NCBI GenBank assembly: GCA_964415615.1
Contig: CAYQAW010000004.1
Coordinates: 21,543 to 85,542, forward strand
Length of the DNA: 64,000 nt
Origin: an uncultured Gammaproteobacteria bacterium
Lineage (GTDB): Bacteria; Patescibacteriota; Microgenomatia; Daviesbacterales; UBA10151
Direction: 5' to 3'
Numbering within the stretch: position 1 is the stretch's first letter; every line of letters starts with the position of its first letter. Of this stretch, positions 29,990 through 48,413 are shown one piece after another. A model generated the notes under the pieces. That model saw only the letters and a program-made list of their open reading frames with translations, did not search any database and was not told the origin of the DNA. Position numbers and translations under genes: made by a program.

Positions 29990-32407
29990 TTAGATCTTCT
30001 TTAGGACTTTCCAAACAACGATAAAGTCATCAAATCCTTTCCATATTATTTGTGCGTTGCAACTGCAAACGTCTTCTGGTTTATTAATGTAGGATAAAGC
30101 TAGATAATCGTAGTCGATGGATTTTGATGGTTCGCTACCAGAAACTTTTGTTTCTTGGTGAGTATAGAATTGATTATTATATCCTGGAAGGGCGTTGTCA
30201 AAATACAAGCTTCTATCTTTTAGGGTAGTTACCAAAGCCCTTTTTAAAGCTTCCCATTTAGACCAGTTCTCAATACCTTTGGAGGAGATATTTACGTAAA
30301 CTTTAGCTTCTCTTGGTATTACAGATTGGCTAAGTTCTGCAAAAGTTCCCGGCAGGTCTGAAGCCTCGTCAATATATGCATCATTTATTTTATATATTCT
30401 TTCCTCGCTTTGATTAGATAAATCATTTGTTGTTGAGAAAATAGGAGAAAAATATTTGTTAGATTTTAGTTGTTCTTTCCTAATTTCTGGCAGCTTTTGG
30501 AAGTCTTGATAATCTATCAGTAGATAAGTAATCTTAAATTTGTTAAACATTGTTGGATTAAGAGTATAAATAAGATCAAAATATTGAGGTGATTTATCTA
30601 TTGAGTAATCTTTATAATCTCCCAACCAAATAGGAGTAAAAACTCCGACATGAATTAAAGGAGAGGTAATGCTAGAACTTAACTGAAGTAATCTAGCGTT
30701 GAAGGGTAAATTATTATATAGCCAGTTTTCTGTAGAATTAAGAAGGTAAGTATCTGGAGAAATTAGTTTATTGTTTTTCTCACCTATTGAAAGAAGCCAG
30801 GCCATATTTGGAAAGAGGGATGGAATAGCTAAACAGATTATTAGGGTGAGTATTATGAATTTATATACTCTGCTTTTCTTTAGATCTTCTAACGTCCATA
30901 TAAGGAAAAGAGCAAGATTGATTCCCAAGAAAGTGTAGGTAAGAGCCAGTAACCTACTGGAGTAATTACTAAGAGAGAATGTTAAATTATACAGCAAGCT
31001 TGTAGTAATCGCAGGCGTAAGTAAGCTTATGAAGATTAACAACCTAAGCCTTTGTCTAGAGAGTAATAAGAATAGGAAGATAAAAAAGTTGGCTAAATAA
31101 AAATAAATGACTCCTGGATGAAACCAGATAAAAGGCAGCCATTTTTCCCTTGTGGGAAGAAATAACCTGGAAGATTGTTGTTGGAGTTGATAAGTTTGTA
31201 GATCAGTATTTTCCAGACGGACAAGTTCGTTGTAATTATCATAAATTGCATTATGGACAAAGGTCTTCTTTTTATCTGGAAAAAATTGTAGAGTAGGGTA
31301 TTCTGATTTCTTTCCTGTTAATAAGCCAGTAGGAACTCCACCTTGGAAGATAATTATAATAGGAAGCAGTAGAGAGAGGATTATTAAGGATAGTACATTT
31401 TTTTTGGTAACAAGAGATCTAAAAGGAAATTCTTTGCAAAGTATTATAAGGCACATTGATGGAAAAGCTAAAAGCACAAACGCCTCGTTTATTATTGATA
31501 GTGCAGCTACGCTAAATGTTAAAATTGTCCAACTTAAGATTCTGCGATTCTTATCGTAAGTAAAACTTAGCCAAAGGATCCAAACAAATGATGCTACCGC
31601 AACTAGCTCGTGATAGAAAAAAATTAAGCCTTGTAAAGAAATAATTGCCCCTCCATATGTCGAGAAGGCTTTTTCTACAGAGGGCATCTTGGAGAGCCAA
31701 TCAAGTATTCCTGTGAAATTTGGTGGGAGCTCAAAAGGAAACTTTGGGACGGCAATCATCCAGTTACCCAAACTAATCAGGATAATAAGAGGTATTAGTT
31801 GATAGGCAATTAAAGACTTGATGGTTAAATGTCTTTTAAACACCCATGATAGAAAAGTTGAGAGCATGAGGAGTATTACAAAAGCAGTAGATCTTTGGAT
31901 TAGATCGAAAGAGCTACCAGAAAATAGGTGAAATACCCCCATAAATATTGAGGGTCCGTAGTGATATGCAAGTTGAATATCTGGTTGCCAAGGTGAGTAA
32001 ATCGGGAAATTTCCTCTAGTAAATGATTTAGCGATCAAGGTATAAAGAGTTGGGTCGCCTGAAAGGCTGACGTGTCCTACAACCCGAAAAAGAAGGATGG
32101 CCCAAATAAGGATTGATAAAAGAAGTAATTTTTTTGAAATGCTATTTGGCAGATTGATTCCAGTAATAGGTTTTTTGAGACGCAAAAGAATTAGGCCAGT
32201 TAAGAAGAAAATGATATAAGCAATATAAATACCCAATGTAGGATGAAATATATATGATGTCAAGTTTAAAAAAAGAATAAATAAAGCAGTACTGCCAAAT
32301 AGTGAGACAGGGACAATTACTTCTAGTCTGTTTTCGGAAGATATTAATCTAGTTAATTTAAAACCCACGAACCAAATAGGTAGTATAAGAAGGAGTATAA
32401 GTAGCAT
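29990..32407 (-). CDS. Large polytopic membrane protein (unknown; possible GT-C glycosyltransferase)
   Basis: 805 aa. The N-terminal ~560 aa are highly hydrophobic with many TM helices. The C-terminal ~250 aa are hydrophilic. Confidence 0.5.
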   Translation of the reverse strand: MLLILLLILPIWFVGFKLTRLISSENRLEVIVPVSLFGSTALFILFLNLTSYIFHPTLGIYIAYIIFFLTGLILLRLKKPITGINLPNSISKKLLLLSILIWAILLFRVVGHVSLSGDPTLYTLIAKSFTRGNFPIYSPWQPDIQLAYHYGPSIFMGVFHLFSGSSFDLIQRSTAFVILLMLSTFLSWVFKRHLTIKSLIAYQLIPLIILISLGNWMIAVPKFPFELPPNFTGILDWLSKMPSVEKAFSTYGGAIISLQGLIFFYHELVAVASFVWILWLSFTYDKNRRILSWTILTFSVAALSIINEAFVLLAFPSMCLIILCKEFPFRSLVTKKNVLSLIILSLLLPIIIIFQGGVPTGLLTGKKSEYPTLQFFPDKKKTFVHNAIYDNYNELVRLENTDLQTYQLQQQSSRLFLPTREKWLPFIWFHPGVIYFYLANFFIFLFLLLSRQRLRLLIFISLLTPAITTSLLYNLTFSLSNYSSRLLALTYTFLGINLALFLIWTLEDLKKSRVYKFIILTLIICLAIPSLFPNMAWLLSIGEKNNKLISPDTYLLNSTENWLYNNLPFNARLLQLSSSITSPLIHVGVFTPIWLGDYKDYSIDKSPQYFDLIYTLNPTMFNKFKITYLLIDYQDFQKLPEIRKEQLKSNKYFSPIFSTTNDLSNQSEERIYKINDAYIDEASDLPGTFAELSQSVIPREAKVYVNISSKGIENWSKWEALKRALVTTLKDRSLYFDNALPGYNNQFYTHQETKVSGSEPSKSIDYDYLALSYINKPEDVCSCNAQIIWKGFDDFIVVWKVLKKI

Positions 32408-32546
32408 ATTGATTTATATCTTTATTAAGGCAGTAGATATGTTCAAACTATAACACAGGTTAAGTTGAGGGGACAAGGTTGATTGAGCAATATCCATACA
32501 AGTTTAAAGATAAGCTTTTTTATTGTATGATTGACTGAATCTAAGT

Positions 32547-33737
32547 ATGGAAAAGAAAAACATTTATATATTTGCTTTAGCTGCTTCTGGTTTAGGAATT
32601 TCTGGAGGAGATAGAATCTTTATTGAAACCTCAAGAGTTTTATCTGAAAACAATAAAATTAAAATATTTGTTTGGAGTGAGGGGTTTGCAATGTGCAAAA
32701 GGCATGATCTTAAAAAGCCTAATATAGAATATCATGTTTCAGAAATGTGGCCTTTTAAAAACTTTGGTTTTGCAATAAATTACTTTGCTAGAATTATTGA
32801 GGGGATAAGATTAGGATTAACAACAGAAGTGGAAAACAATAAAGATACTGTTGTTTATTCTGCCTCAGAATTTTGGATGGATTGCTTGCCAGGATTTATC
32901 TTAAAGATGCGTTTTAAAGACATCAAATGGGTAACAGCTTGGTTTCAGACTGCTCCAAACCCTCTTAAGGGATTTACTGAGGGAGGAAGAAGAGATAGAT
33001 ATCGTTTAAGCGCTCTGCCATATTGGTTAGCGCAGCTTTTTATGAAACCTCTGATTAAGAAGGCTGCTGGTTTAATATTAGTTAATAACCAGACGGAAAT
33101 AAATCAGTTTAATAACCTAAAGAACAATCAGAAAGTGATGGTTTTTTTTGGTGCTTTAGACCTTGATAAAATTGAGTACTTCAAAAATGAATACAGAGAT
33201 ATCAAAAAGAAATATGATGCTGTTTTTCAGGGTAGATTTCATCCACAAAAAGGCGTTTTGGAACTTGTGGATATTTGGAAAAATATAGTTAATGTTAAGT
33301 CTAATGCTTGTTTGGTAATGATTGGAGACGGACCGTTAAAGAGGGATGTAGAGTTAAAAATTAAGAGTTTAGACTTACAGAAGAATATCATTTTGACAGG
33401 ATATTTGTTTGATGGAGAAGATAAATATAAGATCTTTGCCCAAAGCCGGGTAGTAGTCCATCCAGCATTTTACGATTCAGGCGGAATGGCGTCGGCTGAG
33501 GCGATGGCATTCGGTCTTCCTTGTGTTGGCTTTAATCTAGAAGCTTATAAATCTTATTACCCTAAAGGGATGGTTAAGGTGGAAGTTGGTAATTTGGAGG
33601 AATTTTCAAACCAGATTTTAAATCTGCTTAGTGATAAGAAGTATTACGGAGATATTGCTGTACAGGCGACAAATATGATACAAAATAACTGGTCTTTTAA
33701 GACTAGGACAAAACAGTTATTAAAGGAGATAAATTAA
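32547..33737 (+). CDS. Glycosyltransferase family 4
   Basis: 'GRFHPQKGVLELVDIW' and 'GMASAEAMAFGLPCVGFN' form the GT4 E-x7-E region. It is the first gene of a roughly 31-kb co-directional block. Confidence 0.7.
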   Translation: MEKKNIYIFALAASGLGISGGDRIFIETSRVLSENNKIKIFVWSEGFAMCKRHDLKKPNIEYHVSEMWPFKNFGFAINYFARIIEGIRLGLTTEVENNKDTVVYSASEFWMDCLPGFILKMRFKDIKWVTAWFQTAPNPLKGFTEGGRRDRYRLSALPYWLAQLFMKPLIKKAAGLILVNNQTEINQFNNLKNNQKVMVFFGALDLDKIEYFKNEYRDIKKKYDAVFQGRFHPQKGVLELVDIWKNIVNVKSNACLVMIGDGPLKRDVELKIKSLDLQKNIILTGYLFDGEDKYKIFAQSRVVVHPAFYDSGGMASAEAMAFGLPCVGFNLEAYKSYYPKGMVKVEVGNLEEFSNQILNLLSDKKYYGDIAVQATNMIQNNWSFKTRTKQLLKEIN

Positions 33738-34651
33738 TGAATAAAAATAATGTAGGCGTTAGTGTGGTAATACCAAGTTATAATTGCAAGAAAATATTAT
33801 TTAGGTTGCTGGATTCATATAAGAAGTCTTCATATAAAAACTTAGAGATTATAGTAGTTGATAACGGATCTAAAGATGCTAGTTTAGAAGAGGGGAAAAG
33901 AAAATATCCCCATATTAGATGGATAGATGCAGGGGAACACAATATCGGCCAGACTGGTTGTTACAACTTAGGGTTTGCCAGCGCGAAAAAGGGAAACCAT
34001 ATCTTATTTAATGATTCTGACGTTGTGGTTGAAAAAGATATGGTGAAGAGCCTGGTAAAAAGCCTTGATCAAAATAAGAAGATCGGTATTGTTACGCCGA
34101 TGATACTCTATTTATCAGATATAAATTGGGTTAACCAGGCAGGGTCATATGTTGATTTAACAACAGGTAAAGTTAATATAGGCTGGGGTCCGAAGAAAGA
34201 TTTTCTGGTTGGGAAAGAGGTGCAAAACTCCGGAACTTTGATGTTGTTTAGGAATAAAGTTTTGGAAAAGATTGGCGGTTTTGATAATTGGTTTATGTGC
34301 TATTTTGACCCAGATTATTGCCTGAGGGCTAAAAAAGCTGGTTTTATTACCTGGTATAATCCTGAAGCGGTTGCTTATCACGATCAGTCAAAAGACGAGC
34401 GAGTGTGGAGGCCAAGGGTTTTATCTAGAGCTTATTTACTTGGAAGGAATAGAGTGCTTTTTATGAGAAAACATGGCAATATAATCAGTTTTAGTTTATT
34501 CTTGCCCTTACTCTTAGGGTATTATCTGATTGAGGCTTTGCGTTTTAATAAAATGAAGAAATTCTTAGAATTAGTGTGGGGTACAATAGTGGGATATTTT
34601 TATCCAGTAAATAGAAATCTGTATATTCCCCTGCCGAGGTTAAGCAAATGA
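33737..34651 (+). CDS. Glycosyltransferase family 2
   Basis: 'VSVVIPSYNCKKILFRLLDS...EIIVVDNGSKD' and a DxD-type 'NDSDVVV'. Its ATG overlaps the upstream stop (ATGA). Confidence 0.7.
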   Translation: MNKNNVGVSVVIPSYNCKKILFRLLDSYKKSSYKNLEIIVVDNGSKDASLEEGKRKYPHIRWIDAGEHNIGQTGCYNLGFASAKKGNHILFNDSDVVVEKDMVKSLVKSLDQNKKIGIVTPMILYLSDINWVNQAGSYVDLTTGKVNIGWGPKKDFLVGKEVQNSGTLMLFRNKVLEKIGGFDNWFMCYFDPDYCLRAKKAGFITWYNPEAVAYHDQSKDERVWRPRVLSRAYLLGRNRVLFMRKHGNIISFSLFLPLLLGYYLIEALRFNKMKKFLELVWGTIVGYFYPVNRNLYIPLPRLSK

Positions 34652-35304
34652 AAATACTCGATCGCCTGAAGCTAACTTTACCGTTTTCTTATATGTGGTT
34701 ATTAAGAATTTCTATTGGAGATTGTAAAACAGTTTTAGACTTAGGTTGTGGTGATGGGTCGTTAATGGGCCTTCTTTCGCAAAACAATAAGTGGCAGATC
34801 ACGGGAGTTGATATTTATAAGCAATCAATTGAAAGAGCTAAGAGAAGTAATATTTATCATGAATTGTTCCAAGGTGATTTGCTCAAGACTATTAAAAACA
34901 ATAAATTAAAGCCTAGATATGATGTAGTATTCTTTTCCCAGGTAATAGAGCATATAACAAGAAGCCAGGGTGAACAGATCCTTGATGAAATTGAAACACT
35001 AGCAAGAAAAAGGATTGTCGTGGGAACTCCTCGTGGATTCATGGAGCAGCCACATGAGTTTTTGGATGGAAATCCTTATCAGGTCCACAAATCAGGATGG
35101 AGTATTGAGGACTTTAGTTCAAGAGGATATAAAGTTTATGGAGTGGGGTTTTGGCCGATTTGGTCTTATCATGGATTGGGGCGGAATGCTGGCATTTTTG
35201 GCAAGATTGTCTCTAACCTGATTTCCTATATGATGTCACCTGTTGTCTATTATTTTCCTCAACTGGCTGCAGGTGTTATTGCCATAAAAGAAAAGAGCAG
35301 GTAA
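34648..35304 (+). CDS. Class I SAM-dependent methyltransferase
   Basis: 'VLDLGCGDGSLM' and 'YDVVFFSQVIEHI'. Confidence 0.65.
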   Translation: MKILDRLKLTLPFSYMWLLRISIGDCKTVLDLGCGDGSLMGLLSQNNKWQITGVDIYKQSIERAKRSNIYHELFQGDLLKTIKNNKLKPRYDVVFFSQVIEHITRSQGEQILDEIETLARKRIVVGTPRGFMEQPHEFLDGNPYQVHKSGWSIEDFSSRGYKVYGVGFWPIWSYHGLGRNAGIFGKIVSNLISYMMSPVVYYFPQLAAGVIAIKEKSR

Positions 35305-35310
35305 AAATAA

Positions 35311-36363
35311 ATGCTTACAGGAAAGCTTCCTTTTATATCCATAGTTATTGCTAACTATAATGGTAGAGCGTATCTCCGTACGTGCCTAACTGCGCTTCTT
35401 AGATCTTCTATAACAAAATACGAGATTATAGTTATTGACAATAATTCCACTGATGAGAGTGCTGAGATTGTAAAGGAATTTATAGTTCGTGACCCAAGAA
35501 TTTCATTATTAAGAAATAAGGTTAATATAGGAGTGCCTGCCAGCAGAAACAGGGCTATTAAGAGTTGCAAGGGTGATATTGTTATCTTGTTAGATAATGA
35601 TACTCAAGTAAAGCCTGATTCCTTAAAACAGCTGATAGAGCCTTTATTAGAGGATAAAGAAGTGGGTGCAGCTCAAGCATTGTTAATCGATTTCGAGAAT
35701 AGAGATTTAATACAAATGGCCGGGGGCCATTTAATCCCTCAAGCTATTTGGTTGATGGGCTTTTACGAAAGAAGCAAGTTTAAAGAGGTAAGATCTGAGC
35801 TTGGACTCTCGAATATAATAGCAATATCAGCAGCGCTAGCTGTTAAAAAAGAGGTGTTGGATAAGATTGGCGGATATGATGCTTTGCTTTATAATTACAC
35901 TGACGACCTGGACCTTTCCTGGCGAATTTGGATTGCAGGTTATAGAGTAGTTCTTGCCAATAAAGCAATTGTATTTCATTACACAAAGTCAGTGGCAAGG
36001 CGTGCCAATATTGGTGCTAATAATTTTGATATTTACTTTCAACTTGCTAAAAACTCTTTTCGTTCAATGCTAAAAAACTATGAGATGACAAACGTGATCA
36101 GGTATTTGCCAATTAGTCTTTTTGTGAACTTATCCCGAGCGACTCTAGTGCTTGTGAAAAGAGGCGATTTTTCTGCTTTTTTGGCAACTCTTTATAGTAT
36201 ATGGTGGAGTTTTAAGAATTTACAGAATAGCTTACAAAGCCGTGCATTAACTCAAAAAACAAGGAAATTGAGTGATAAGCAAATAATGGAGGAAGTCTTT
36301 GTTAAGGGTGGATTAATAGATATTTATAATAGGAATTACAGAAGTTCTAAGCTTTTATGGTAA
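35311..36363 (+). CDS. Glycosyltransferase family 2
   Basis: 'ISIVIANYNGRAYLRTCLTALLRS...EIIVIDNNSTDES' and 'LLDNDTQV'. Confidence 0.7.
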   Translation: MLTGKLPFISIVIANYNGRAYLRTCLTALLRSSITKYEIIVIDNNSTDESAEIVKEFIVRDPRISLLRNKVNIGVPASRNRAIKSCKGDIVILLDNDTQVKPDSLKQLIEPLLEDKEVGAAQALLIDFENRDLIQMAGGHLIPQAIWLMGFYERSKFKEVRSELGLSNIIAISAALAVKKEVLDKIGGYDALLYNYTDDLDLSWRIWIAGYRVVLANKAIVFHYTKSVARRANIGANNFDIYFQLAKNSFRSMLKNYEMTNVIRYLPISLFVNLSRATLVLVKRGDFSAFLATLYSIWWSFKNLQNSLQSRALTQKTRKLSDKQIMEEVFVKGGLIDIYNRNYRSSKLLW

Positions 36364-39300
36364 AAAAAGCATACTCAATTACACTCCTTTTTCTGGTACT
36401 CTCGGCAATATTAATAATTTGCTGGTTTAGGTTTGGACTGATGTATGGTGGTGGTGATACTGGCCTACCGACATACAATCCGAAGGTCATGGCTGGTATT
36501 GCCAGTAATATTTGGTGGGATTCATTGGCACCTGGTATACCTGTAGCCCAGGGTTTAACTTCAGTCCCCATGCTTTTTCTTTTATCTATACCGCAAATTT
36601 TAGGGGCAGGTCCAGTTTTAATACAGGAATTGTTGTTTTTTAGCCTGCTTTTTTTAATGGGTTATGGCATGTATCTTTTGGCCTTAAGTATTTTTGGCAA
36701 ATCAAATTATTTGATGGCAATTGCTTCAGGAGTGTTTTATATGTTCAACCCTTATATGATGGTTCAAATTTGGCACCGGTTTATCCACAACTCAATGTTT
36801 TTTGTTTCATTTGTACCTTTTTTGGTCATGAGTTGGCTAAGGTGGATTAGAGAGCGTAAGCCTATATCATTGTTGGTTTTCCTGCTACTGAACTTTTTGG
36901 CTGTCTATATCTTTGGCACTATTGCTTTTATAGTTGGTTTTTGGCTATTCCTTTTTCTGCTGACTGTACTTGAGGGAGTAATACCATGGAAAGGGAAAAA
37001 GGCAATGATAGAGTTATCTTTGGCTTTTGTGATCGGACTAGTTTTTTGGCTTTTAACCAACAGCTGGTGGATTATTCCTACTTTCAATATCAGTCCAACT
37101 CTATTTGCTGAGCAGCATACAACCAATGATAGTTTGGCCACACTAATGGATCTTTCTGCACAAACAATCTTGCCATATACACTTCGTCTTATTAACCCTT
37201 TTTATTTATATTGGCATGCTGATTGGGGAGACATTTATCAAAATATCATTTTCTTATCAATTTCCTGGCTGTTTGTACTGGTAGTATTTATTGGTTTTTT
37301 AAAAGGTTTAAAACAGAGGCAATATGTCAAATGGAGTTTACTTTTTTTAATATTCATTATCTTAGGAAAAGGAGCAGCACCACCATTTGGTTTCCCCTAT
37401 ATTTGGGGTTTTTCCAACTTCTTTCCACTGGGGGTGATTAGGAATCCTTTTGAAAAACTGGGGATTTTACTGCCTTTAATTTATGCCATTCTTTTTGCTT
37501 ATGGCTTGAAGATCTTAATGTCTTATTTAAACAACCGTATTGGTAAAGGCAAGGCAAGCTTTATTTTGGTAGTTTTTATTATCTCAAATTTAGCTTTCTT
37601 GTGGCCTATGTTTGCTGGTAAGCTATTTGGTACTTTAGATAAACAAAACTTTGTGCAAGTACCACCAGATTATGGTTTGGCAGATAATTGGATTCGAAAA
37701 GATCTCGCTGGTACAAAAGAAGGTAGAATCTTGCACCTGCCACTCTCAAGGTCTGAAAGCATTACATATAATTGGCAGAATGGTTACAATGGAGTTGAGC
37801 CATCTGCTGCTTTATTTACCTCTCTTCCTTCTATAGCTAGGAATCTAGATATCCCCAAGGTTAGTGGTGCTATTTCTGCCCTATCTTTAATATTCCATAA
37901 ACCATATGCCAAAGACCCTGCAGTAATACTAAAGCTGTTACAGGATTTTAGTATCAAATATATTATCATACATAATGATGTAGATTGGTTAAAAAACGAA
38001 CTATCTAATCCTCGAGAGGTTGAAGAAGTTTTGGCAAAATTAGATTTCCTGGAAAAAGAAATTAGTTTTGGAAGCTTATCAATCTATAAAATAAAAGATC
38101 AATTTTTTCAGAGAGAAATAACTATTTCAGATAACTTGCAATTACTTTATAACACAGATGACAAAGTGTTTTGGCCTTGGATGGTAAGTACTCCATCAGC
38201 AGAGATGGTGAGTATATATAACGGCCAAGAGGGCAACATTTTAAATCAAGCCAATAAAATTATAGTTTTCCCAGATCGGCAAATATCAGTTAAGGATATA
38301 CAGGTGCCAAAGTTCAGGGGCAATTTAGATGACTTTGTTGCTGTTAGAGCTCTGCCAAATAACCCCTTATATTTTCTATTCCAAGCAAAAGAGTGGCTAA
38401 GCCTTATAGGTAAAAAACTTGATGAAGAGCAAAAAGATATTTTCGTTCTTGCTGAGAAAAGGTTGATTGAGATGTATAAGATTAAAAGAATGAGGGAAAT
38501 GGGAGCGATAAACCAAAAAGAAGGAAATGAAATTATTCTATCATTGATTAACAGATATCAAGACGTGTTAAACAAAATTTTCCAGTCTGAGGCTGGTTTT
38601 AATAACTTTTTGGTTGCAACTCCAAGATTTAGTACGACAGATACTTTCCTCAAGCACATTAGCCTGCTAAAGGAGCTGAGCGAGAGCACCACTGAACCAA
38701 GCGAAAAGAATATTGCTGAAGAAGCGATAGAGCTGATTAACAGAAACTTAATAAGGGCAAACTTCTTCCCTAAATACCCTCAGATATCTCAGCTAAGTGA
38801 AAATAAGTTAGATAAGAATTATGGCAGCGAGCTATATAGGTTCAACGTTCCTATAAAATCAAACTACGAAATCTTTATGACTAATCCCCAAGTTAGGAGC
38901 ATATATCCGAATGGTTTATCTCAAATTAATTTCCAAATAAACGACCATTACAAGAGTGTGCCGTTAAACGAGAAAAATGGAATGATTTATTTAGGGGAAG
39001 AGAAAATGAATGTAGATGAATATCAGACAGTGATGCCAAGATTGTCCTCTGTTAATTTGGCGCCCAGCATAAATGATTGGCAGACGTCAGGTGATGTGGT
39101 TGTTTCCGAGCAGGCAGGTACTATAGAGTTGTCGTCTGATAAGAAAAATTCTGCCTATATTGAAAGCGATATTAAACCTTTGTTTGGGCAGGATTTGTTT
39201 CTAGTTGCCTTTGATACAAAACTAGTATTAGGAAAAAGGATTAGGGTGCAGTTAACTCAGGATATAGATCCATTTGATAAACTCTTAAATAAAACAATAT

Positions 39301-39941
39301 ATCGTTATGATAATTATTTCACACCGGTCGATAAAGATGGATGGAATCAGTTTAGTGTAATGTTGGATTTACATTTTATCGCTCAAAAAGCCAAGCTAAA
39401 GATTCAGGTGGAACCTTGGGATGATTGTTTAGTGGTTTTAGCTGATAAGAAAAGTTGCGAAGATACGAAAAAAAGACAACAATATAATCGGCCTTCTAAA
39501 TTCTTGATCAAGAATATAAGTGTGGATAGAGTATTAAACAACGTCATCCTCCTTAGCAGTAATTTACCAGCAACTCCTTCTGCTGCTACTGCTGGCGATG
39601 TAGTACAGCGAAATAAACAAAATTCAAGTCTATATACGGGTAAAATAAGTATGAAACATCCAGGATTACTACTTTTTAAGCAATCGTTTAGCCCTGATTG
39701 GCAACTAAACCTTACCAAGGATAATAACATTTATCAGCCTACAGAGCATTTAATTGGGAACTTGTTCGCCAATGCTTGGTGGATAGATGAGGCAGGTGAC
39801 TATGATTTTACCTTAAGCTATCTTCCGCAAAAAAATATTCAGGCTGGTCTATTGTCTGCTGGACTGGGATGGGTTATATTAATCTTAATGTTAATGGTTA
39901 ATGAAAGGCATAAGTTGCGGAGGCTTGTAAAAATTAAGTGA
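36357..39941 (+). CDS. Giant polytopic membrane protein, putative GT-C glycosyltransferase (YfhO/AftD-like), paralogue 2
   Basis: 1194 aa. N-terminal membrane module with 'GGGDTGLPTYNPKV' and 'IRNPFEKLGILLPLIYAILFAYGL'. Residues ~10-566 are identical to 40289..43339. It has a unique ~630-aa C-terminal hydrophilic domain ending 'FSPDWQLNL...ANAWWIDEAGDYDFTLSYLPQ' plus a terminal TM. Confidence 0.6.
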   Translation: MVKKAYSITLLFLVLSAILIICWFRFGLMYGGGDTGLPTYNPKVMAGIASNIWWDSLAPGIPVAQGLTSVPMLFLLSIPQILGAGPVLIQELLFFSLLFLMGYGMYLLALSIFGKSNYLMAIASGVFYMFNPYMMVQIWHRFIHNSMFFVSFVPFLVMSWLRWIRERKPISLLVFLLLNFLAVYIFGTIAFIVGFWLFLFLLTVLEGVIPWKGKKAMIELSLAFVIGLVFWLLTNSWWIIPTFNISPTLFAEQHTTNDSLATLMDLSAQTILPYTLRLINPFYLYWHADWGDIYQNIIFLSISWLFVLVVFIGFLKGLKQRQYVKWSLLFLIFIILGKGAAPPFGFPYIWGFSNFFPLGVIRNPFEKLGILLPLIYAILFAYGLKILMSYLNNRIGKGKASFILVVFIISNLAFLWPMFAGKLFGTLDKQNFVQVPPDYGLADNWIRKDLAGTKEGRILHLPLSRSESITYNWQNGYNGVEPSAALFTSLPSIARNLDIPKVSGAISALSLIFHKPYAKDPAVILKLLQDFSIKYIIIHNDVDWLKNELSNPREVEEVLAKLDFLEKEISFGSLSIYKIKDQFFQREITISDNLQLLYNTDDKVFWPWMVSTPSAEMVSIYNGQEGNILNQANKIIVFPDRQISVKDIQVPKFRGNLDDFVAVRALPNNPLYFLFQAKEWLSLIGKKLDEEQKDIFVLAEKRLIEMYKIKRMREMGAINQKEGNEIILSLINRYQDVLNKIFQSEAGFNNFLVATPRFSTTDTFLKHISLLKELSESTTEPSEKNIAEEAIELINRNLIRANFFPKYPQISQLSENKLDKNYGSELYRFNVPIKSNYEIFMTNPQVRSIYPNGLSQINFQINDHYKSVPLNEKNGMIYLGEEKMNVDEYQTVMPRLSSVNLAPSINDWQTSGDVVVSEQAGTIELSSDKKNSAYIESDIKPLFGQDLFLVAFDTKLVLGKRIRVQLTQDIDPFDKLLNKTIYRYDNYFTPVDKDGWNQFSVMLDLHFIAQKAKLKIQVEPWDDCLVVLADKKSCEDTKKRQQYNRPSKFLIKNISVDRVLNNVILLSSNLPATPSAATAGDVVQRNKQNSSLYTGKISMKHPGLLLFKQSFSPDWQLNLTKDNNIYQPTEHLIGNLFANAWWIDEAGDYDFTLSYLPQKNIQAGLLSAGLGWVILILMLMVNERHKLRRLVKIK
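36384..38057 (+). repeat. 1674-bp direct repeat, copy A (identical to 40322..41995)
   Basis: Translations in three different frames and on both strands are identical between the copies, at a constant offset of 3938 bp (e.g. ORFs 36905..37141 and 40843..41079). Identity stops abruptly at 38058/41996. Confidence 0.8.
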
Positions 39942-40282
39942 AAAATAATATCTACTTATTATCCAGAATTACAATATTTTTTATTGTTTTACTGGGAGTA
40001 CTTTATATTTTGGAATATGGCTTTGTTTTTGATTCACCACATAAATTATTGAATGTCTTTCTGCTGGCTGGGCTTACTACAATAATATTTTTTAATTTAC
40101 GCCTCAGACGCTATGCTTTGATTCTTGCGATTGTTTGTTTGGCGATAATGGTTTTAACCTATATTCTATATATGCCCTACATGTTTTTACCGACTGGAGA
40201 TTTTGGTTTTAGTTTACTTATTATTACAATTGTTTCATATCTCCCTAAAATTATCAAAAAAGGTTATATCGAAAGATTTTAA
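39938..40282 (+). CDS. Small membrane protein (3 predicted TM), unknown
   Basis: 114-aa hydrophobic ORF between the two duplicated giant genes. Its start overlaps the upstream stop (ATGA-type). Confidence 0.4.
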   Translation: MKNNIYLLSRITIFFIVLLGVLYILEYGFVFDSPHKLLNVFLLAGLTTIIFFNLRLRRYALILAIVCLAIMVLTYILYMPYMFLPTGDFGFSLLIITIVSYLPKIIKKGYIERF

Positions 40283-40288
40283 TTTATA

Positions 40289-43200
40289 TTGATAATGAAA
40301 AAAACTACTATTGCCCCTTTGCTCCTTTTTCTGGTACTCTCGGCAATATTAATAATTTGCTGGTTTAGGTTTGGACTGATGTATGGTGGTGGTGATACTG
40401 GCCTACCGACATACAATCCGAAGGTCATGGCTGGTATTGCCAGTAATATTTGGTGGGATTCATTGGCACCTGGTATACCTGTAGCCCAGGGTTTAACTTC
40501 AGTCCCCATGCTTTTTCTTTTATCTATACCGCAAATTTTAGGGGCAGGTCCAGTTTTAATACAGGAATTGTTGTTTTTTAGCCTGCTTTTTTTAATGGGT
40601 TATGGCATGTATCTTTTGGCCTTAAGTATTTTTGGCAAATCAAATTATTTGATGGCAATTGCTTCAGGAGTGTTTTATATGTTCAACCCTTATATGATGG
40701 TTCAAATTTGGCACCGGTTTATCCACAACTCAATGTTTTTTGTTTCATTTGTACCTTTTTTGGTCATGAGTTGGCTAAGGTGGATTAGAGAGCGTAAGCC
40801 TATATCATTGTTGGTTTTCCTGCTACTGAACTTTTTGGCTGTCTATATCTTTGGCACTATTGCTTTTATAGTTGGTTTTTGGCTATTCCTTTTTCTGCTG
40901 ACTGTACTTGAGGGAGTAATACCATGGAAAGGGAAAAAGGCAATGATAGAGTTATCTTTGGCTTTTGTGATCGGACTAGTTTTTTGGCTTTTAACCAACA
41001 GCTGGTGGATTATTCCTACTTTCAATATCAGTCCAACTCTATTTGCTGAGCAGCATACAACCAATGATAGTTTGGCCACACTAATGGATCTTTCTGCACA
41101 AACAATCTTGCCATATACACTTCGTCTTATTAACCCTTTTTATTTATATTGGCATGCTGATTGGGGAGACATTTATCAAAATATCATTTTCTTATCAATT
41201 TCCTGGCTGTTTGTACTGGTAGTATTTATTGGTTTTTTAAAAGGTTTAAAACAGAGGCAATATGTCAAATGGAGTTTACTTTTTTTAATATTCATTATCT
41301 TAGGAAAAGGAGCAGCACCACCATTTGGTTTCCCCTATATTTGGGGTTTTTCCAACTTCTTTCCACTGGGGGTGATTAGGAATCCTTTTGAAAAACTGGG
41401 GATTTTACTGCCTTTAATTTATGCCATTCTTTTTGCTTATGGCTTGAAGATCTTAATGTCTTATTTAAACAACCGTATTGGTAAAGGCAAGGCAAGCTTT
41501 ATTTTGGTAGTTTTTATTATCTCAAATTTAGCTTTCTTGTGGCCTATGTTTGCTGGTAAGCTATTTGGTACTTTAGATAAACAAAACTTTGTGCAAGTAC
41601 CACCAGATTATGGTTTGGCAGATAATTGGATTCGAAAAGATCTCGCTGGTACAAAAGAAGGTAGAATCTTGCACCTGCCACTCTCAAGGTCTGAAAGCAT
41701 TACATATAATTGGCAGAATGGTTACAATGGAGTTGAGCCATCTGCTGCTTTATTTACCTCTCTTCCTTCTATAGCTAGGAATCTAGATATCCCCAAGGTT
41801 AGTGGTGCTATTTCTGCCCTATCTTTAATATTCCATAAACCATATGCCAAAGACCCTGCAGTAATACTAAAGCTGTTACAGGATTTTAGTATCAAATATA
41901 TTATCATACATAATGATGTAGATTGGTTAAAAAACGAACTATCTAATCCTCGAGAGGTTGAAGAAGTTTTGGCAAAATTAGATTTCCTGGAAAAAAAAGC
42001 CATCTTTGGTGATTTATCCCTATACAAGATAAAAGACAATTATTTTAAGCCTAAAATTACTATATCAGATAATATGGCATTATTGTCATTTCCTAAGTCT
42101 TCTCCAGAGGTGACATCATTTTGGCCTTGGGTTATTGTTGGGCCATCAGACTTAATTTCAATTGTTAGCTCAGAGGATAAGCAGTTTAGTATTAAAAGCC
42201 AAGAAAACTTACTTGTCCCTAGAGTAACCTTCAATAGCAGTGAAGCTTCTCCAAGTGGATTTAAGACTATTTTTGAAGTACAAAAAAAAGCTAAATATGA
42301 ACTACTAATGTCTGACGCCCAGACGAGTGACTTTTACTTAAACAACCTTTCTTCTTTAAAAGTCTCAGTAAATGGTCAAACAAATGTTTTTAATAGTAAT
42401 AAAACAGGAAGTATATTATCTTTCGGTCCAGTTGAGCTTAATCCAGGATTAAATGAGATTAATTATGGCCCGATATTATCAAAAGATTTGTTACCTGATT
42501 TTGATATATGGAATAAGATAGGAGATGTCAAAAGAATAGACCAATCTGTTTTCCAGATGAATTCTGGAGACAAAGGTTACGCTTATGTTGAAGGTAATTT
42601 AAAAGAGGGTGTGTATAGTGGAGGAGTATTAAGAGTATCTCTTGATATTTTAAATAGCTCTGAAGTATTGATGTTTATACAAATACTGCAAGATTCTGAT
42701 TTGGATGAGAAGAGTGACCATAACGGATTAAAAGGTGCTGGAGTCAGAGATATCCCAGCCATTCAATATTTCAAAGTAAATACAATGAATAATTGGCGGA
42801 GTATTAGCTTTGCTTTGCCAACTCTTCGGCAAACTACTCAAAAAGCAAGATTTCGGTTGATTATAATATCTCCTTACCAAGCTACTTTATTTCAAAGCTC
42901 AGGAGATGTATCTATTAAGAATTTTAAGGTCCAACGGCTGCTTAGTAACGCTTTGTTTCTACACAGCATAAACACTGATAATACGCCTCTTACTTCTGCT
43001 GGTGAGATGTTATTAGAGCATGAAAACAGTAGCTCTCAGTACACAGGAAAAATAAAATTAAGTAGGCCAGCCTGGTTGATATTTAAAGAGACATTTCATC
43101 CTGACTGGGAACTGAAGATTTCAGATAGCCAAGGTGAAGATATTCCAGAAAGTCATTATTTGGCTGGTTCGTTTGCGAACGCTTGGTATGTAGATAAAGC

Positions 43201-43339
43201 AGGTGAGTATAATTTTAAAATCAGCTTTAAACCACAAGACAATCTTAATATTGGATTATTTACATTAGGTTTTTCTATAATTGTGTTGCTGGGTTATATG
43301 TTTTGGACTGGAGTATATAATCTTAACAAAAAGAGATGA
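40289..43339 (+). CDS. Giant polytopic membrane protein, putative GT-C glycosyltransferase (YfhO/AftD-like), paralogue 3
   Basis: 1016 aa. The N-terminal ~557 aa are identical to 36357. It has a distinct C-terminal domain ending 'FHPDWELKI...ANAWYVDKAGEYNFKISFKPQ' plus a terminal TM. Confidence 0.6.
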   Translation: MIMKKTTIAPLLLFLVLSAILIICWFRFGLMYGGGDTGLPTYNPKVMAGIASNIWWDSLAPGIPVAQGLTSVPMLFLLSIPQILGAGPVLIQELLFFSLLFLMGYGMYLLALSIFGKSNYLMAIASGVFYMFNPYMMVQIWHRFIHNSMFFVSFVPFLVMSWLRWIRERKPISLLVFLLLNFLAVYIFGTIAFIVGFWLFLFLLTVLEGVIPWKGKKAMIELSLAFVIGLVFWLLTNSWWIIPTFNISPTLFAEQHTTNDSLATLMDLSAQTILPYTLRLINPFYLYWHADWGDIYQNIIFLSISWLFVLVVFIGFLKGLKQRQYVKWSLLFLIFIILGKGAAPPFGFPYIWGFSNFFPLGVIRNPFEKLGILLPLIYAILFAYGLKILMSYLNNRIGKGKASFILVVFIISNLAFLWPMFAGKLFGTLDKQNFVQVPPDYGLADNWIRKDLAGTKEGRILHLPLSRSESITYNWQNGYNGVEPSAALFTSLPSIARNLDIPKVSGAISALSLIFHKPYAKDPAVILKLLQDFSIKYIIIHNDVDWLKNELSNPREVEEVLAKLDFLEKKAIFGDLSLYKIKDNYFKPKITISDNMALLSFPKSSPEVTSFWPWVIVGPSDLISIVSSEDKQFSIKSQENLLVPRVTFNSSEASPSGFKTIFEVQKKAKYELLMSDAQTSDFYLNNLSSLKVSVNGQTNVFNSNKTGSILSFGPVELNPGLNEINYGPILSKDLLPDFDIWNKIGDVKRIDQSVFQMNSGDKGYAYVEGNLKEGVYSGGVLRVSLDILNSSEVLMFIQILQDSDLDEKSDHNGLKGAGVRDIPAIQYFKVNTMNNWRSISFALPTLRQTTQKARFRLIIISPYQATLFQSSGDVSIKNFKVQRLLSNALFLHSINTDNTPLTSAGEMLLEHENSSSQYTGKIKLSRPAWLIFKETFHPDWELKISDSQGEDIPESHYLAGSFANAWYVDKAGEYNFKISFKPQDNLNIGLFTLGFSIIVLLGYMFWTGVYNLNKKR
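40322..41995 (+). repeat. 1674-bp direct repeat, copy B
   Basis: See copy A. Confidence 0.8.
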
Positions 43340-43503
43340 TTATTCTTTTAGCGAGTGAAATTGGATTTATAATAAGCGGTTTAATGATTCTACTGGGTCA
43401 TACTGGTTTAGCAGATAAGAGTTTAATAGGAGTATTCTTTATTACTTTATTTGGTGTGATGGTTTATAGTTTTAAACTTTTTAAAAATGATCAAAAACAG
43501 TAA
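43336..43503 (+). CDS. Possible small membrane protein (55 aa), translationally coupled
   Basis: The ATG overlaps the TGA of 40289..43339 (ATGA). The hydrophobic sequence is 'MIILLASEIGFIISGLMILLGHTGLADKSLIGVFFITLFGVMVYSF...'. It is below the ORF-track length cutoff and weakly supported. Confidence 0.25.
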   Translation: MIILLASEIGFIISGLMILLGHTGLADKSLIGVFFITLFGVMVYSFKLFKNDQKQ

Positions 43504-46192
43504 AACAGTGTATTATAAGCATCCCCTATTAGCAACTTGTATCATTATACTAAGCTGTTTCTGGATTTTTTGGTCTCCTGGAATCAGAGTAGCAACTGAT
43601 TACCATCTGTCTTCCAAAGTAGGTTTGCTAAGTATTTTTCCTTGGAGCTGGAGAGAATTTGAGGTGGGGGATGGATTAGGAGAGTATACCGCTGTGACTT
43701 TATGGAGCCAGCCGCTTTTGTCATTATCTTCCTTATTAAATTTTACTTTTGTTGGTGACGAGGTTCCAACAAAAATAATAGGAGCGATTATACTAATAGG
43801 TGGCATACTGGGTATCTGGAAATTGTTAGATTATTTTAAGCTTGGAAATTGGGGAAAATGCTTAGCTTCGGTATTCTTTATTTTGAACAGCTTTTTTTTA
43901 TTAATGTTTGATGGAGGGCAATTTTCACTTAATTTAGCCTATGTTAGTATTCCTTATGCCTTGTTAGCCTTTATAAAACTGGTAGAGTCTGGTCTCTGGC
44001 AGGATAGAGTTAAGTTTACTATTACTATCTTACTAATATCCTCTCTTGATATAAGAATATTATTTTTGTCGGTAATTATTTTAGGATTATACCTTTTGGG
44101 TAAGATTCTAGTTAAGTTTAAAGCGAGAGAAACGGTCAAACTATTTAAAAATTTGTATTTATCCGTTTTGTTTACTGGCGTTATTTTAGTTGGATTCCAT
44201 GCTTATTGGTTATTACCTTCTTTCATTGCTAAGTCTCCTAGTTTACCCTTAACTTATGATCGCTTAGATCAAGTAAGATTTTTAAGCTTTTCTTCTATAG
44301 CCCATTCTTTATTCTTACAGCAACCTCACTGGTATAAAAATATTTTTGGTCACATTAGCCAGCCTCAATTTGAGTTTATATTGATACCAATACTAGTATT
44401 TCTATCTCCGATATTAATTAAAAGGAATCGTTGGATAACCTTTTGGTTAGGTGTGGCTTTGCTAGGAGTGTTTTTGAGCAAGGGTTCACAAGATCCTTTG
44501 TCTGGTATATATTTGTGGTTATTTAGTTATTTTCCTTTCTTCTCTGTTTTTAGAGATCCAGTTAAGTTCTATTTTTTAACAGCTTTAGCCTACAGTGTGT
44601 TAATAGGTTTTACTACTGATGCTATTACCAAACTTCAAAGGATCAATCGGATTACTAGTCTGAGTATTAAATTAGCGCCTAAATTAATTTTACTTTACCT
44701 GATTATATTGATCAATCCAATGTATTTAGGCCAAATGCTGGGTATGATCTCACAACCAGTAAATTTAGAAAAATATAGAGGTATGGCAAATATCTTAAGG
44801 GCTGACTCATCGTTTTCCCGAGTTTTATGGTTACCATTTAGCCAACCACTTAGCTATTCTAGTCTTGCGCACCCTTTACTTGAGGCCTCCAGACTATCTA
44901 CTAAAAGACCCTTTGCAATAGGAACAGTTGGGACATATGAGACAAATAACTTCCTGAGAGAAGCTCCATATATGGGTGAAATCTTTGATGTGGCAGGGAT
45001 TGGTTATATTGTAAATCCTTATCTTGATCCAAGAAGGGATGATATGCATCCTGATAATATTAAGTATTACTATACTTTTTTGGATCAGCTTTCAAGAAGG
45101 CCCTGGCTTACAAGATTAGAGAACCCTTACATACCTGTTTTAAAGACGAAGCAACATCAAGATAAATTTTTTGTTTCCTCTAATACTTGGTGGGTTATTG
45201 GATCAGACAATATCTATAATCAGGCAACGACAAGCGCGAATTTAAGACTTGCCAACAATGCCATGATATTTGTTGAAGAATCACCAGGTTTGGGTAATAG
45301 AATTGATGAGTTATCAGATGTTAAGGTGATACTAAACAATAAGACTAATACAGACTTTGCAGCAAGCTTTATCGATCCTTTAAAACTAATTTTTCCAGCG
45401 AAGAGTTTAAACTTTAGTCCTGATAAATCTGGCTGGTGGAAGAGGGAAGCAGCAGATTTAGTTTCTTGGAGAGCTTTTTTACGCAGTAAATACAATATTG
45501 ATAACCTGGATTTTGATTTAGGCGGCGGATGGGCAATAGGAGAAGGAAAATTAGAATTAAGAATTATGAATTATGAATTAAGGCAAGACAAGATATTACT
45601 AGCAAGGGTGATGGAGAGTTCAAGAAGTGGAGAATTAAAATATTATCAGGATGGGAAATTACTTGGTCAGATAAATACTAAGAATCAAGAGAACAATGTG
45701 AGATGGTTTGAGGTAGGTAGATTAAATTCTGATAGGGCATTAACAATTGTTTCAGAGGGAGATATTAATGTGGTGAATGCTTTAGCGGTTTTAGATAAAA
45801 ACGAATGGTTAGGTTATCAAGATAAAGCTAAGGAGCTGCAGGAAAGGGTTGTAACTTTTGATGAGAAGAATGCTCAAAATATCTCACAACCTGCAGTTAG
45901 ATATGAACAGATAAATCCTACTAAATATAAAGTAATTATAAGTAATTTGACTCAATCTGCATTTTTGGTATTTTCTCAGAATTATGATGGTTTATGGAAA
46001 ATAGATAATCAACCTTCTCTGCCAGTATATAGTCTGCTAAATGGGTTTAGAGTAGATAAAAATGGGGAATATACAGTTGAATTTGAGCCTCAAAAATATA
46101 TAATTCCAGGGTTAATAGTAACAGCTATTACTTGTTTCTCTTTAATTTTTATCTTAGTTTTCACCACAAAAAAATTCAAATCTAGGCTATAA
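43487..46192 (+). CDS. Giant polytopic membrane protein, paralogue 4 of the YfhO/AftD-like family
   Basis: 901 aa. 'FRDPVKFYFLTALAYSVLIGF' corresponds to the 'RNPFEKLGILLPLIYAILFAYGL' motif. It has a hydrophilic C-terminal domain ending 'NGFRVDKNGEYTVEFEPQ' plus a terminal TM. Confidence 0.6.
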   Translation: MIKNSKTVYYKHPLLATCIIILSCFWIFWSPGIRVATDYHLSSKVGLLSIFPWSWREFEVGDGLGEYTAVTLWSQPLLSLSSLLNFTFVGDEVPTKIIGAIILIGGILGIWKLLDYFKLGNWGKCLASVFFILNSFFLLMFDGGQFSLNLAYVSIPYALLAFIKLVESGLWQDRVKFTITILLISSLDIRILFLSVIILGLYLLGKILVKFKARETVKLFKNLYLSVLFTGVILVGFHAYWLLPSFIAKSPSLPLTYDRLDQVRFLSFSSIAHSLFLQQPHWYKNIFGHISQPQFEFILIPILVFLSPILIKRNRWITFWLGVALLGVFLSKGSQDPLSGIYLWLFSYFPFFSVFRDPVKFYFLTALAYSVLIGFTTDAITKLQRINRITSLSIKLAPKLILLYLIILINPMYLGQMLGMISQPVNLEKYRGMANILRADSSFSRVLWLPFSQPLSYSSLAHPLLEASRLSTKRPFAIGTVGTYETNNFLREAPYMGEIFDVAGIGYIVNPYLDPRRDDMHPDNIKYYYTFLDQLSRRPWLTRLENPYIPVLKTKQHQDKFFVSSNTWWVIGSDNIYNQATTSANLRLANNAMIFVEESPGLGNRIDELSDVKVILNNKTNTDFAASFIDPLKLIFPAKSLNFSPDKSGWWKREAADLVSWRAFLRSKYNIDNLDFDLGGGWAIGEGKLELRIMNYELRQDKILLARVMESSRSGELKYYQDGKLLGQINTKNQENNVRWFEVGRLNSDRALTIVSEGDINVVNALAVLDKNEWLGYQDKAKELQERVVTFDEKNAQNISQPAVRYEQINPTKYKVIISNLTQSAFLVFSQNYDGLWKIDNQPSLPVYSLLNGFRVDKNGEYTVEFEPQKYIIPGLIVTAITCFSLIFILVFTTKKFKSRL

Positions 46193-46200
46193 TAATTAAT

Positions 46201-47475
46201 ATGCTTAGATCTATTTTTAAAACCGCAACATTTAAGCAATCGCAAATCACAACGGTAGGGACTGTTCTAAATGGAGGACTGGGGGCTCTTTTTTATGTTT
46301 TGCTAGCCAGATTTATGGGGCCTGCTGAGTTTGGGTTGCTGACCATCTCCATAACTACATTAGTGCTTATAGCAGATATTGCGGATATAGGTACAAATAC
46401 AGGTTTGATTCGCTTTGTTTCCTTAAATATGGCGCAAAATAGAGAAAAGGGCTTAAAGTTTTTAAAATTAAGTTTAGAAATAAAGCTAGTAGCATGGCTT
46501 TTAGCGTTTATAACCATCTTTCTATTGTCTCCATTTTTGGCAAATCAAATTTTCCATAAGCCTGAGCTAATTTGGCCACTTAGGCTTGTGGGGTTTGGTG
46601 TGGGAGGAGCATTGCTTTTTAGTTTTGTTACCTCTAGCTTGCAGGCGTTCCAGAGGTATTTTATGTGGAGTATGGTAAATATTGTCACTAACGCTTTACG
46701 TCTGGTTTTGGTTTTTGTTTTGGGCTATTACCTGCTGATCAATGTTGAAAGTGTTTTATTTGTGTATGTTCTCTTACCTTTTTTTGGGTTTTTTTTGACA
46801 CTTTTTATTCTGCCAAGCAGGGATGTATTTAGAGCAAAAGATGAATTCAATTTACTTCAGGAACTTCTAAAGTATAATATGTCGGTAGCTCTTTTTTCGA
46901 TTTTTGCCGCATTTTCCGCTAGATTAGATACTTTTCTAAATGCAGCTTTGCTTTCCAGCAGAGAAGTGGGTATTTATGGAGCGGCGAATCAGTTGGTTCA
47001 AATTATGCCTCAACTAGTGTCAGCCTTGGGATTAGTTTCAGCTCCCAAATTTGCCTCCTTTCAAAAAAATAATCAAATGCTGGTTTACTTTAAAAAGTTT
47101 CAGCTTTTTGTCTTAGGGCTGTGTTTGGTTGGGCTTTTAACCATTCCTATTTCAGCTTATCTGATTCCAATGCTTTTTGGTTCATCTTACCGTGAGGCGG
47201 TAACACCCTTTGTATATTTATTTTTAGGGCAGCTAATTTTTCTTTTCTCAATACCAGTGCATCATAGTATCATCTTTTATTTCGGTAGGCCAGATATTTT
47301 TATCTGGGTGGCTTTAGGGAATCTTGCGATAATTGGTGGTTTAGGATATTGGATGATTTCAAATTTTGGGATTATAGGTGCTGCTGTTACCGTACTTGTG
47401 GGCATGCTTTTTAATTTTGTATGTCCTTTAATTTGGTTATTTATTAAATTACGGAAATCAGGAGATAAAACATGA
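46201..47475 (+). CDS. Polysaccharide/O-unit flippase, MOP superfamily (Wzx-like)
   Basis: 424 aa with about 12 TM. The N-terminus 'VLNGGLGALFYVLLARFMGPAEFGLLTISITTLVLIADIADIGTNTGLIRF' is typical of the Polysacc_synt/Wzx family. Confidence 0.7.
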   Translation: MLRSIFKTATFKQSQITTVGTVLNGGLGALFYVLLARFMGPAEFGLLTISITTLVLIADIADIGTNTGLIRFVSLNMAQNREKGLKFLKLSLEIKLVAWLLAFITIFLLSPFLANQIFHKPELIWPLRLVGFGVGGALLFSFVTSSLQAFQRYFMWSMVNIVTNALRLVLVFVLGYYLLINVESVLFVYVLLPFFGFFLTLFILPSRDVFRAKDEFNLLQELLKYNMSVALFSIFAAFSARLDTFLNAALLSSREVGIYGAANQLVQIMPQLVSALGLVSAPKFASFQKNNQMLVYFKKFQLFVLGLCLVGLLTIPISAYLIPMLFGSSYREAVTPFVYLFLGQLIFLFSIPVHHSIIFYFGRPDIFIWVALGNLAIIGGLGYWMISNFGIIGAAVTVLVGMLFNFVCPLIWLFIKLRKSGDKT

Positions 47476-48269: not shown

Positions 48270-48413
48270 TAGTTCCCCTTAAGAGGCGATACAGCTATAA
48301 AAGTACTATAATGGATTGTGGGGTAGTTTATTTGACCGAGGTGATCGGTTAAGAAAATATTTTTAGTTTTCATTACTTAATCATACCATCATGTCTTATG
48401 ATAATATTAATTA

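Follow-up and report, generated by a model that had tools for sequence, protein, structure and literature searches.

How do two neighbouring genes come to be identical, letter for letter, over one half of their length while the other halves are far diverged? The question is raised by a 64,000-nucleotide (nt) stretch of contig CAYQAW010000004.1 (assembly GCA_964415615.1), referred to here in its full length as the window. Its nearest genomes are metagenome-assembled genomes (MAGs) of Candidatus Daviesbacteria/Microgenomates, within the Candidate Phyla Radiation (CPR), and it carries in tandem two genes for giant membrane proteins, A and B, predicted to be glycosyltransferases of the GT-C type. 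Our answer, which we regard as highly probable, is that A and B are ancient tandem paralogues and that the 1,674-bp block they share stems from a very recent interlocus gene conversion, the latest of a long series. The two genes, the small open reading frame (ORF) between them and the segments on which the argument turns are as follows.

36357..39941, + strand: gene A, 1,194 amino acids (aa), predicted AftD-like GT-C glycosyltransferase (ORF list, translation and AlphaFold2 model)
36384..38057, + strand: repeat copy 1, putative perfect conversion tract; codons 10-567 of gene A, encoding the transmembrane (TM) core and most of the soluble GT-C domain
38058..38134, + strand: apparent decayed tract edge, ~71% nt identity to 41996-42072 as against ~45% further on
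38370..38756, + strand: helical-bundle insertion of A that B lacks; in A2-type homologues (see below) the corresponding region scores as DUF5667, PF18915
39938..40282, + strand: small membrane ORF between A and B, 114 aa, ~4 hydrophobic helices
40295..43339, + strand: gene B, 1,014 aa from its ATG; the ORF list starts it at a TTG, 40289, two codons upstream
40322..41995, + strand: repeat copy 2, identical to 36384-38057
41996..43339, + strand: B-type C-terminal module, a predicted carbohydrate-binding-module (CBM)-like β-sandwich ectodomain plus TM anchor, orthologous to B modules elsewhere

A base-by-base comparison at an offset of 3938 showed that 36384-38057 and 40322-41995 form a single unbroken run of 1,674 bp with 0 mismatches; the second-longest identical run at that offset is 8 bases. 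The first-pass annotation, made from the letters alone, had described this block, and its length, offset and coordinates proved exact. A blastn of the whole window against itself recovered it as the sole large repeat, in agreement with a separate repeat search, and the edges were sharp, with no evenly scattered mismatches. Upstream of 36384 the identity between A and B is at background (16-38% per 50-nt window). Downstream of the block, blastn extends over ~77 nt at ~71% identity (22 mismatches), after which the offset comparison gives 16-36%. The ATG of gene B is exactly in register with that of gene A, and in both genes the block sets in 27 nt after the ATG (36357 and 40295) and finishes after codon 567 (...DFLEK), so that 9 non-identical codons are followed by 558 identical ones (codons 10-567) and then by divergence. 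At an orthologue-like divergence (~72% nt identity with the nearest relatives), the chance of 1,674 straight matches would be ~0.72^1674, which is effectively zero. The GC content is 0.35-0.37 within the tract and 0.33-0.36 outside, which gives no indication of a foreign origin or of biased conversion. Beyond the sharp 3′ edge, ~30 codons are still 64% identical in nucleotides between A and B of the window, and just past this edge the window B is closer to gene A of a related species (L001, see below) than to that species' gene B. The segment 38058-38134 is probably the decayed remnant of an older, longer conversion tract.

The history of the pair was read from related loci, taken from GTDB representatives (L001-L009), JGI and ENA metagenomes (L010-L031) and contigs of close homologues (L032-L036). 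In all of them the two large genes keep their tandem order, and a third large gene (gene C) and a flippase gene usually follow. Around the window, a sub-clade of related genomes shares the arrangement A - small ORF - B; we refer to it as the W-clade. In ten same-contig pairs outside the clade, the N-terminal modules (N-modules) of A and B are just 43-52% identical in amino acids and the C-terminal modules (C-modules) 25-31%. The six same-contig pairs inside it have N-modules that are 78-99% identical, with C-modules at 25-32% (96% and 26%, respectively, in L001). Within the genomes of this clade the N-modules are more alike (78-100% aa identity) than they are between genomes (~65-73%). Between genomes the N-module differs at ~28% of nucleotides and ~27% of amino acids, whereas A and B of the window are identical at every synonymous site, a pattern for which selection alone cannot account.

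The same conclusion was reached by counting quartet-informative amino-acid sites in 7 genomes (21 pairs), with the N-module taken as residues 20-560 and the C-module as everything beyond 620. In the N-module, 1608 sites grouped the genes by genome, 21 by orthology and 23 by the third topology; for the six quartets in which the window takes part, the counts were 689/0/0. The C-module gave the opposite picture, with 569 sites for orthology, 116 for grouping by genome and 95 for the third topology. Neighbour-joining (NJ) trees of the C-modules separate a clean A clade from a B clade across all lineages, the gene A C-module of the window falling in the A-type clade, whereas in trees of the N-modules, whole or by segment, A pairs with the B of its own genome in this sub-clade only. 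The first codons, by eye, read MVKK or MVKR in A and MKK(S/T) in B, but the informative sites there (5/7/3) are too few to establish A/B orthology. Since distant lineages hold A and B with N-modules at 43-52% identity, the duplication is ancient and the N-module evolves in concert in this clade. The pattern across genomes points to an ancient duplication, after which the N-module was homogenised repeatedly and non-reciprocally; the window appears to be the most extreme and most recent case. The first-pass annotation had proposed a recent conversion of the GT-C module with the C-terminal modules kept distinct; that proposal is backed by concerted evolution that recurs in at least seven related genomes.

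The tracts themselves differ from lineage to lineage. In L001, a separate and independently assembled species at 73% aa identity to the window, A and B share a perfect block of their own that measures 1,581 bp; in L035, a third lineage (~70% aa), a perfect block of 1,744 bp lies whole in a 260-kb scaffold without Ns. Contigs from three other, independent short-read assemblies of the L035 strain (L024, L011 and L036, 99.985-100% identical) break off 77, 121 and 62 nt inside the repeat, as is expected of an exact repeat in short-read assembly graphs. Perfect tracts are shorter in L032 (680 bp) and L033 (628 bp), where the rest of the N-modules is 52-90% identical, and the N-modules of L034 and L010 are mosaics with 60-100% local identity and 77-84% overall. 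In all four of these loci the identity drops to ~45% past codon ~600. In gene-A nucleotides the tracts run from 28 to 1701 in the window, 54 to 1634 in L001, 22 to 1765 in L035, 52 to 731 in L032 and 155 to 782 in L033.

The first-pass annotation had also proposed that orthologous loci be compared for copy number and C-terminal variation, and the answer was mixed. Six genomes (window, L001, L035, L032, L033 and L034) have exactly two genes, whose A and B C-modules are orthologous, and a single small ORF, but L010 (1-7978) holds a three-gene array, X, A and B. Its repeated unit consists of a C-end, the small ORF and an N-module (77.9% identity over 2,580 nt; the C-ends 90.6%), and its middle gene has a B-type start context. 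Compared with L034 (9001-16274), L010 shows no nucleotide similarity over a segment of ~1.5 kb in the A ectodomain, but reaches 78% nucleotide identity in the A N-module and ~83% from the A C-end through the small ORF and B. The two ectodomain types, A1 and A2, are ~30% identical in amino acids; nucleotide similarity breaks off at codon ~590, where the converted module ends, and resumes ~87 codons before the stop, and the sequence flanking the replaced segment is 78-85% identical. L001 and L004 have A2 modules that are 50% identical and N-modules that are just 48% identical. Gene B also occurs in short and long forms among the relatives.

To which parts of the proteins do the identical and the divergent halves correspond? 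AlphaFold2 models of both proteins (A: pLDDT 82.3, pTM 0.78; B: pLDDT 83.6, pTM 0.81) begin with a TM core (residues 1-423) and a soluble α/β GT-C domain (437-598). Gene A then has a helical bundle (~672-800), a β-sandwich ectodomain (824-1155) and a C-terminal TM helix (1158-1193), and gene B a β-sandwich ectodomain (619-978) and a TM helix (980-1013). By BLASTP, residues 829-1176 of A and 660-999 of B are 28% identical (E 1.5e-36). The C-terminal halves had been described at first as different domains; they are instead homologous, with the same β-sandwich ectodomain and TM helix in the two models, and the structure predictions that were proposed to tell them apart revealed a shared architecture to which A only adds the helical bundle.

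The earlier assignment of the pair to AftD-like GT-C enzymes was supported by a Pfam match of B and by fold. Gene B matches PF11847 (GT-C_AftD) with E 9.3e-8 and 30.9 bits (cutoff 26) over residues 73-578. Gene A has no Pfam match at E ≤ 0.01, nor has the isolated N-module, although the stretch matched in B is nearly all shared, so the assignment is fragile at the level of sequence. With B above and A below the PF11847 threshold, threshold-based annotation of this family is unreliable; many homologues carry precomputed PF11847 matches. In HMMER searches of PDB sequences, neither B by itself nor a profile of 57 sequences had a meaningful match to solved structures, and the relation to AftD rests on Pfam and fold. 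In Foldseek searches with the B model the top match was AftD (6w98_A, E 4.4e-18, query-normalised TM-score 0.51); the AftD entries 6w98, 6wby and 6wbx (E 4e-18 to 4e-16) were followed by the oligosaccharyltransferases STT3/PglB and by AftA, and the C-terminal part matched CBM4/CBM61-type modules. Like AftD (PDB 6W98), the models have an N-terminal polytopic GT-C core, a soluble α/β domain and β-sandwich CBM-like modules outside the membrane. Unlike it, they end in one C-terminal TM helix, where AftD has a C-terminal helix bundle, and the sequence identity is 12%. The AftD paper describes a GT-C "super-domain", made up of the TM part and the soluble α/β domain and followed by carbohydrate-binding modules, and reports that D41, an aspartate of the first loop, is essential. 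In the A/B family an aspartate of the first loop, D34 in GGGDTG (motif GGGD(T/V)G), is conserved in at least 90% of 57 and of 46 aligned homologues and, lying in the first loop as D41 does, is its putative counterpart. At the fold level the assignment to AftD-like GT-C glycosyltransferases is clear, and the identical block (residues 10-567) corresponds to the predicted super-domain of the AftD type, with the divergent part made up of the CBM-like ectodomain and its anchor.

In the event that we propose, one of the genes had its 5′ 1.7 kb replaced by the other's sequence through intragenomic, non-reciprocal homologous recombination. The N-terminal GT-C super-domain of the two genes evolves in concert in the sub-clade, with tract ends that vary by lineage, and the ectodomain, the C-terminal anchor and the first ~9 codons are left out of the tracts. 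A first conversion that made the N-modules alike would render RecA-type recombination between direct repeats 3.9 kb apart efficient, and the process might in this way sustain itself. At the 5′ end, the tracts would be bounded by the loss of homology in the differing upstream genes, and at the 3′ end by ectodomains (~28% aa identity) too diverged for heteroduplex extension; the 3′ limit is probably also set by selection for two distinct acceptor-recognition modules. The outcome would be two enzymes with the same catalytic and donor-binding core and different ectodomains; they would presumably share a lipid-linked sugar donor and differ in the acceptor or in the step that they carry out.

Could the block be produced by the assembly, by selection or by another kind of exchange? 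The window comes from a metagenome-assembled contig, the exact repeat of 1.7 kb is longer than short reads, assemblies of related strains break at it, and bubble popping could mask a few single-nucleotide polymorphisms. A single gene or two strain variants might then have been misassembled as a tandem pair, or one consensus written for two diverged copies. However, both copies have unique and differing flanks (the first 9 codons, the A-tail, the small ORF and the B-tail), with U-R-X-R-D as the only path that uses all edges of the repeat graph. This architecture recurs in 6 other genomes from independent projects and assemblers, each with a perfect or partial block of its own, and the partial tracts (628-680 bp) with diverged remainders cannot be collapse artefacts. 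We consider it very unlikely that the repeat of the window is an assembly error. That purifying selection or codon constraint keeps the N-modules identical without any recombination can practically be discarded. The N-module is indeed the more conserved half between species (73% aa, compared with 28-47% for the C-modules), but the identity is complete at synonymous sites at which no such conservation is seen among orthologues (~28% of nucleotides differ), the two N-modules are only 43-52% identical in the ten pairs of other lineages, and the tract edges are knife-sharp and differ among lineages. The synonymous-site identity together with the lineage-specific tract ends refutes selection as the sole cause. 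Cycles of unequal crossing-over, in which a unit of C-module, small ORF and N-module is duplicated and deleted and the block is the trace of a recent duplication and loss, are quite an improbable source of the pattern as a whole. The three-gene array of L010 is the product expected from such an exchange, and a C-end plus intergenic plus N-part unit of evolution has also been described for the lpl cluster of Staphylococcus aureus (PMC2568036). Against it stand the constancy of two genes and one small ORF in the six genomes named above and the internal tract of L033, which has diverged N-module on both sides and needs a double crossover or a conversion-type event, one unequal exchange being insufficient. 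As an alternative, unequal crossing-over holds in part, and it occurs in L010.

It was further suggested in the first-pass annotation that the locus might work as a cassette-like system for varying the recognition domain. In its adaptive form, this would mean that the identity of the N-modules is kept as a recombination handle for the swap, loss and gain of ectodomains, a proposal that we find doubtful. In its favour are the A1/A2 replacement between L010 and L034, bounded near the module junction, the resemblance of the L001 and L004 A2 modules despite the distance of the N-modules, the short and long forms of B, and the different copy number in L010; these suggest that the ectodomain may turn over as a unit in the relatives. 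But the ectodomain differences lie between species-level lineages and not within a population, and they are fitted equally well by fast divergence or by differential loss from an older multi-copy array, since the trees of the flanking GT1 and GT2 genes disagree, are poorly resolved, and give no proof of incongruence with ectodomain type. Both window genes are intact, neither silent cassettes nor a dedicated recombinase, reverse transcriptase or transposase were found among the Pfam-scanned ORFs within ~20 kb either side of A/B, the converted part is the conserved part, and nothing favours selection over recombination mechanics as the keeper of N-module identity. The cassette idea finds no support in the window itself and retains hints in L010 and L034. 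The deletion or duplication heterogeneity foreseen in the first-pass annotation stands no better for the window, and the L010 array supports it indirectly. It is unlikely, though conceivable, that perfect GT-C modules serve as handles by which a swappable ectodomain and an unstable copy number diversify acceptor recognition in CPR populations; the A1/A2 replacement, the long and short B and the L010 array would then be the footprints of such diversification, which we would not expect to be the case. If true, ectodomain shuffling would give a membrane glycosyltransferase a modular diversification of the kind known from polymorphic toxins or from the receptor-binding proteins of phages.

The interpretation that we favour, ancient paralogues and very recent conversion, has points against it as well. 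Gene conversion proper and cycles of unequal crossing-over are inseparable from sequence alone. Gene A is below the Pfam threshold even though 558 of its first 567 residues are identical to those of B. The enzymatic function, the donor and the acceptor are predicted only through the similarity of fold and Pfam profile to AftD. The window is known from its assembly alone, and bubble popping in a De Bruijn graph may have turned an identity of perhaps ~99% or more into 100%.

The surroundings of A and B are a very large glycan-synthesis island with nucleotide-sugar enzymes, GT1 and GT2 glycosyltransferases, methyltransferases, a Wzx/MOP flippase and a PMT_2 protein, and all Pfam-assigned ORFs within ~20 kb either side are glycan-synthesis genes. 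None of them (nucleotide-sugar enzymes, GT1/GT2, Wzx-like flippase) identifies the sugar. From 12295 to 54000 the window is in essence one giant surface-glycan island; besides A and B it encodes a number of very large polytopic proteins of GT-C-like type, which is a striking outlay for the genome of a CPR bacterium. The neighbours to which we refer are the following.

12295-15030: gene E, GT-C-like paralogue, 29% identical to A/B
29990-32407, minus strand: 805-aa ORF with a weak TMEM260-like match
35311..36363, + strand: GT2 glycosyltransferase; its stop overlaps the start of A, and it is the non-homologous 5′ flank that would limit the tract
43487..46192, + strand: gene C, giant polytopic membrane protein and third member of the tandem; 23% identical in amino acids to the A/B N-module
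48414-49952: PMT_2 protein (Pfam)

Gene C is a distant, unconverted paralogue that is kept downstream of B in most related loci; its residues 296-466 gave a sub-threshold NCBIfam match to the MmpA trehalose lipid delivery family (E 3.6e-8, 32 bits, cutoff 210). The small ORF between A and B is present in all W-clade loci that cover the interval (44-56% aa identity); in some cases it occurs after B as well. For this ORF (39938-40282) no match to a Pfam or NCBIfam family, GtrA included, was obtained, and it may be a partner or a flippase of the GT-C enzymes. In three-component extracytoplasmic glycosylation, a polyprenyl-phosphate-sugar synthase and a flippase act together with a GT-C enzyme (PMC11127046). 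A GT2 gene does adjoin A, but its product has no predicted TM segment and only sub-threshold NCBIfam matches, and a GtrB/GtrA-like system made of the GT2 and the small ORF is unsupported, given the lack of a GtrA match and of TM segments in the GT2. A scan for promoters and terminators over 32000-48500 gave nothing above shuffled expectation. Apart from the A/B block, the only further self-match of the window is a 45-bp direct repeat (91% identity; 20542-20586 and 22607-22651) that brackets a 625-aa ORF without Pfam family (20607-22484).

How does the pair compare with known cases? Within-genome near-identity that is maintained by RecA-dependent conversion while orthologues diverge is familiar from tufA/tufB of Salmonella and from rRNA operons. 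There the whole gene is homogenised and the copies are redundant, whereas in A/B one module is homogenised and the rest is distinct. The embC-embA-embB genes are tandem GT-C arabinosyltransferase paralogues with C-terminal CBM domains; for aftD or emb genes, concerted evolution has to our knowledge not been reported. Unlike pilE/pilS, vlsE, diversity-generating retroelements or shufflons, A and B are full-length ORFs in an operon-like array, and the exchanged part is the conserved and not the variable one.

Closer parallels exist. In Helicobacter pylori, babA/babB and homA/homB undergo segment-restricted concerted evolution through RecA-dependent intragenomic conversion, with chimeric genes (PMC3960876). 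As in babA/babB, one segment of A and B is similar within a genome while the others keep their orthology between genomes. The bab loci, however, are dispersed, their 3′ adhesin segment is the one that is homogenised, and conversion demonstrably switches the binding phenotype, whereas A and B are tandem, predicted GT-C enzymes in which the putatively catalytic 5′ 1.7 kb is homogenised. Tandem paralogues of the S. aureus lpl cluster recombine via a conserved block (Tsuru & Kobayashi 2008, PMC2568036); the unit there is the 3′ part of a gene, the intergenic stretch together with the 5′ part of the next gene, and L010 has exactly such a unit. Recombination through a conserved block also explains the gain and loss of copies among the esaG/tipC immunity genes (Garrett et al. 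2022, PMC9484751). Both of the latter comprise numerous short genes in arrays, with the comparison made inside a single species, whereas A and B are a stable pair of 3-3.6-kb genes with a letter-perfect block that makes up half of each, and the evidence is from between species. The first-pass annotation had held the finding to be undescribed. This stands in part: our search of the literature on gene conversion in AftD-like/GT-C enzymes or in CPR bacteria found no description, but segment-restricted concerted evolution of bacterial paralogues is well known. We conclude that the locus is a real and unusually clear case of a known process, for which the protein family and the phylum are new, and no new mechanism.

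For practical work on these organisms, the exact repeats break short-read assemblies of Daviesbacteria MAGs at a predictable place, and the N-terminal half misleads the inference of orthology and phylogeny if it is used. For their biology, the locus provides sequence-level evidence that recombination between paralogues is active and recurrent in CPR bacteria, which have genomes of ~1 Mb, cannot be grown alone and are without recombination genetics. For the family, it is a natural domain-swap experiment in a poorly understood group of giant AftD-like GT-C proteins: since at least three species hold two enzymes with identical catalytic cores that differ in the ectodomain alone, it should be the ectodomain, and not the core, that carries the functional difference, presumably in acceptor recognition.

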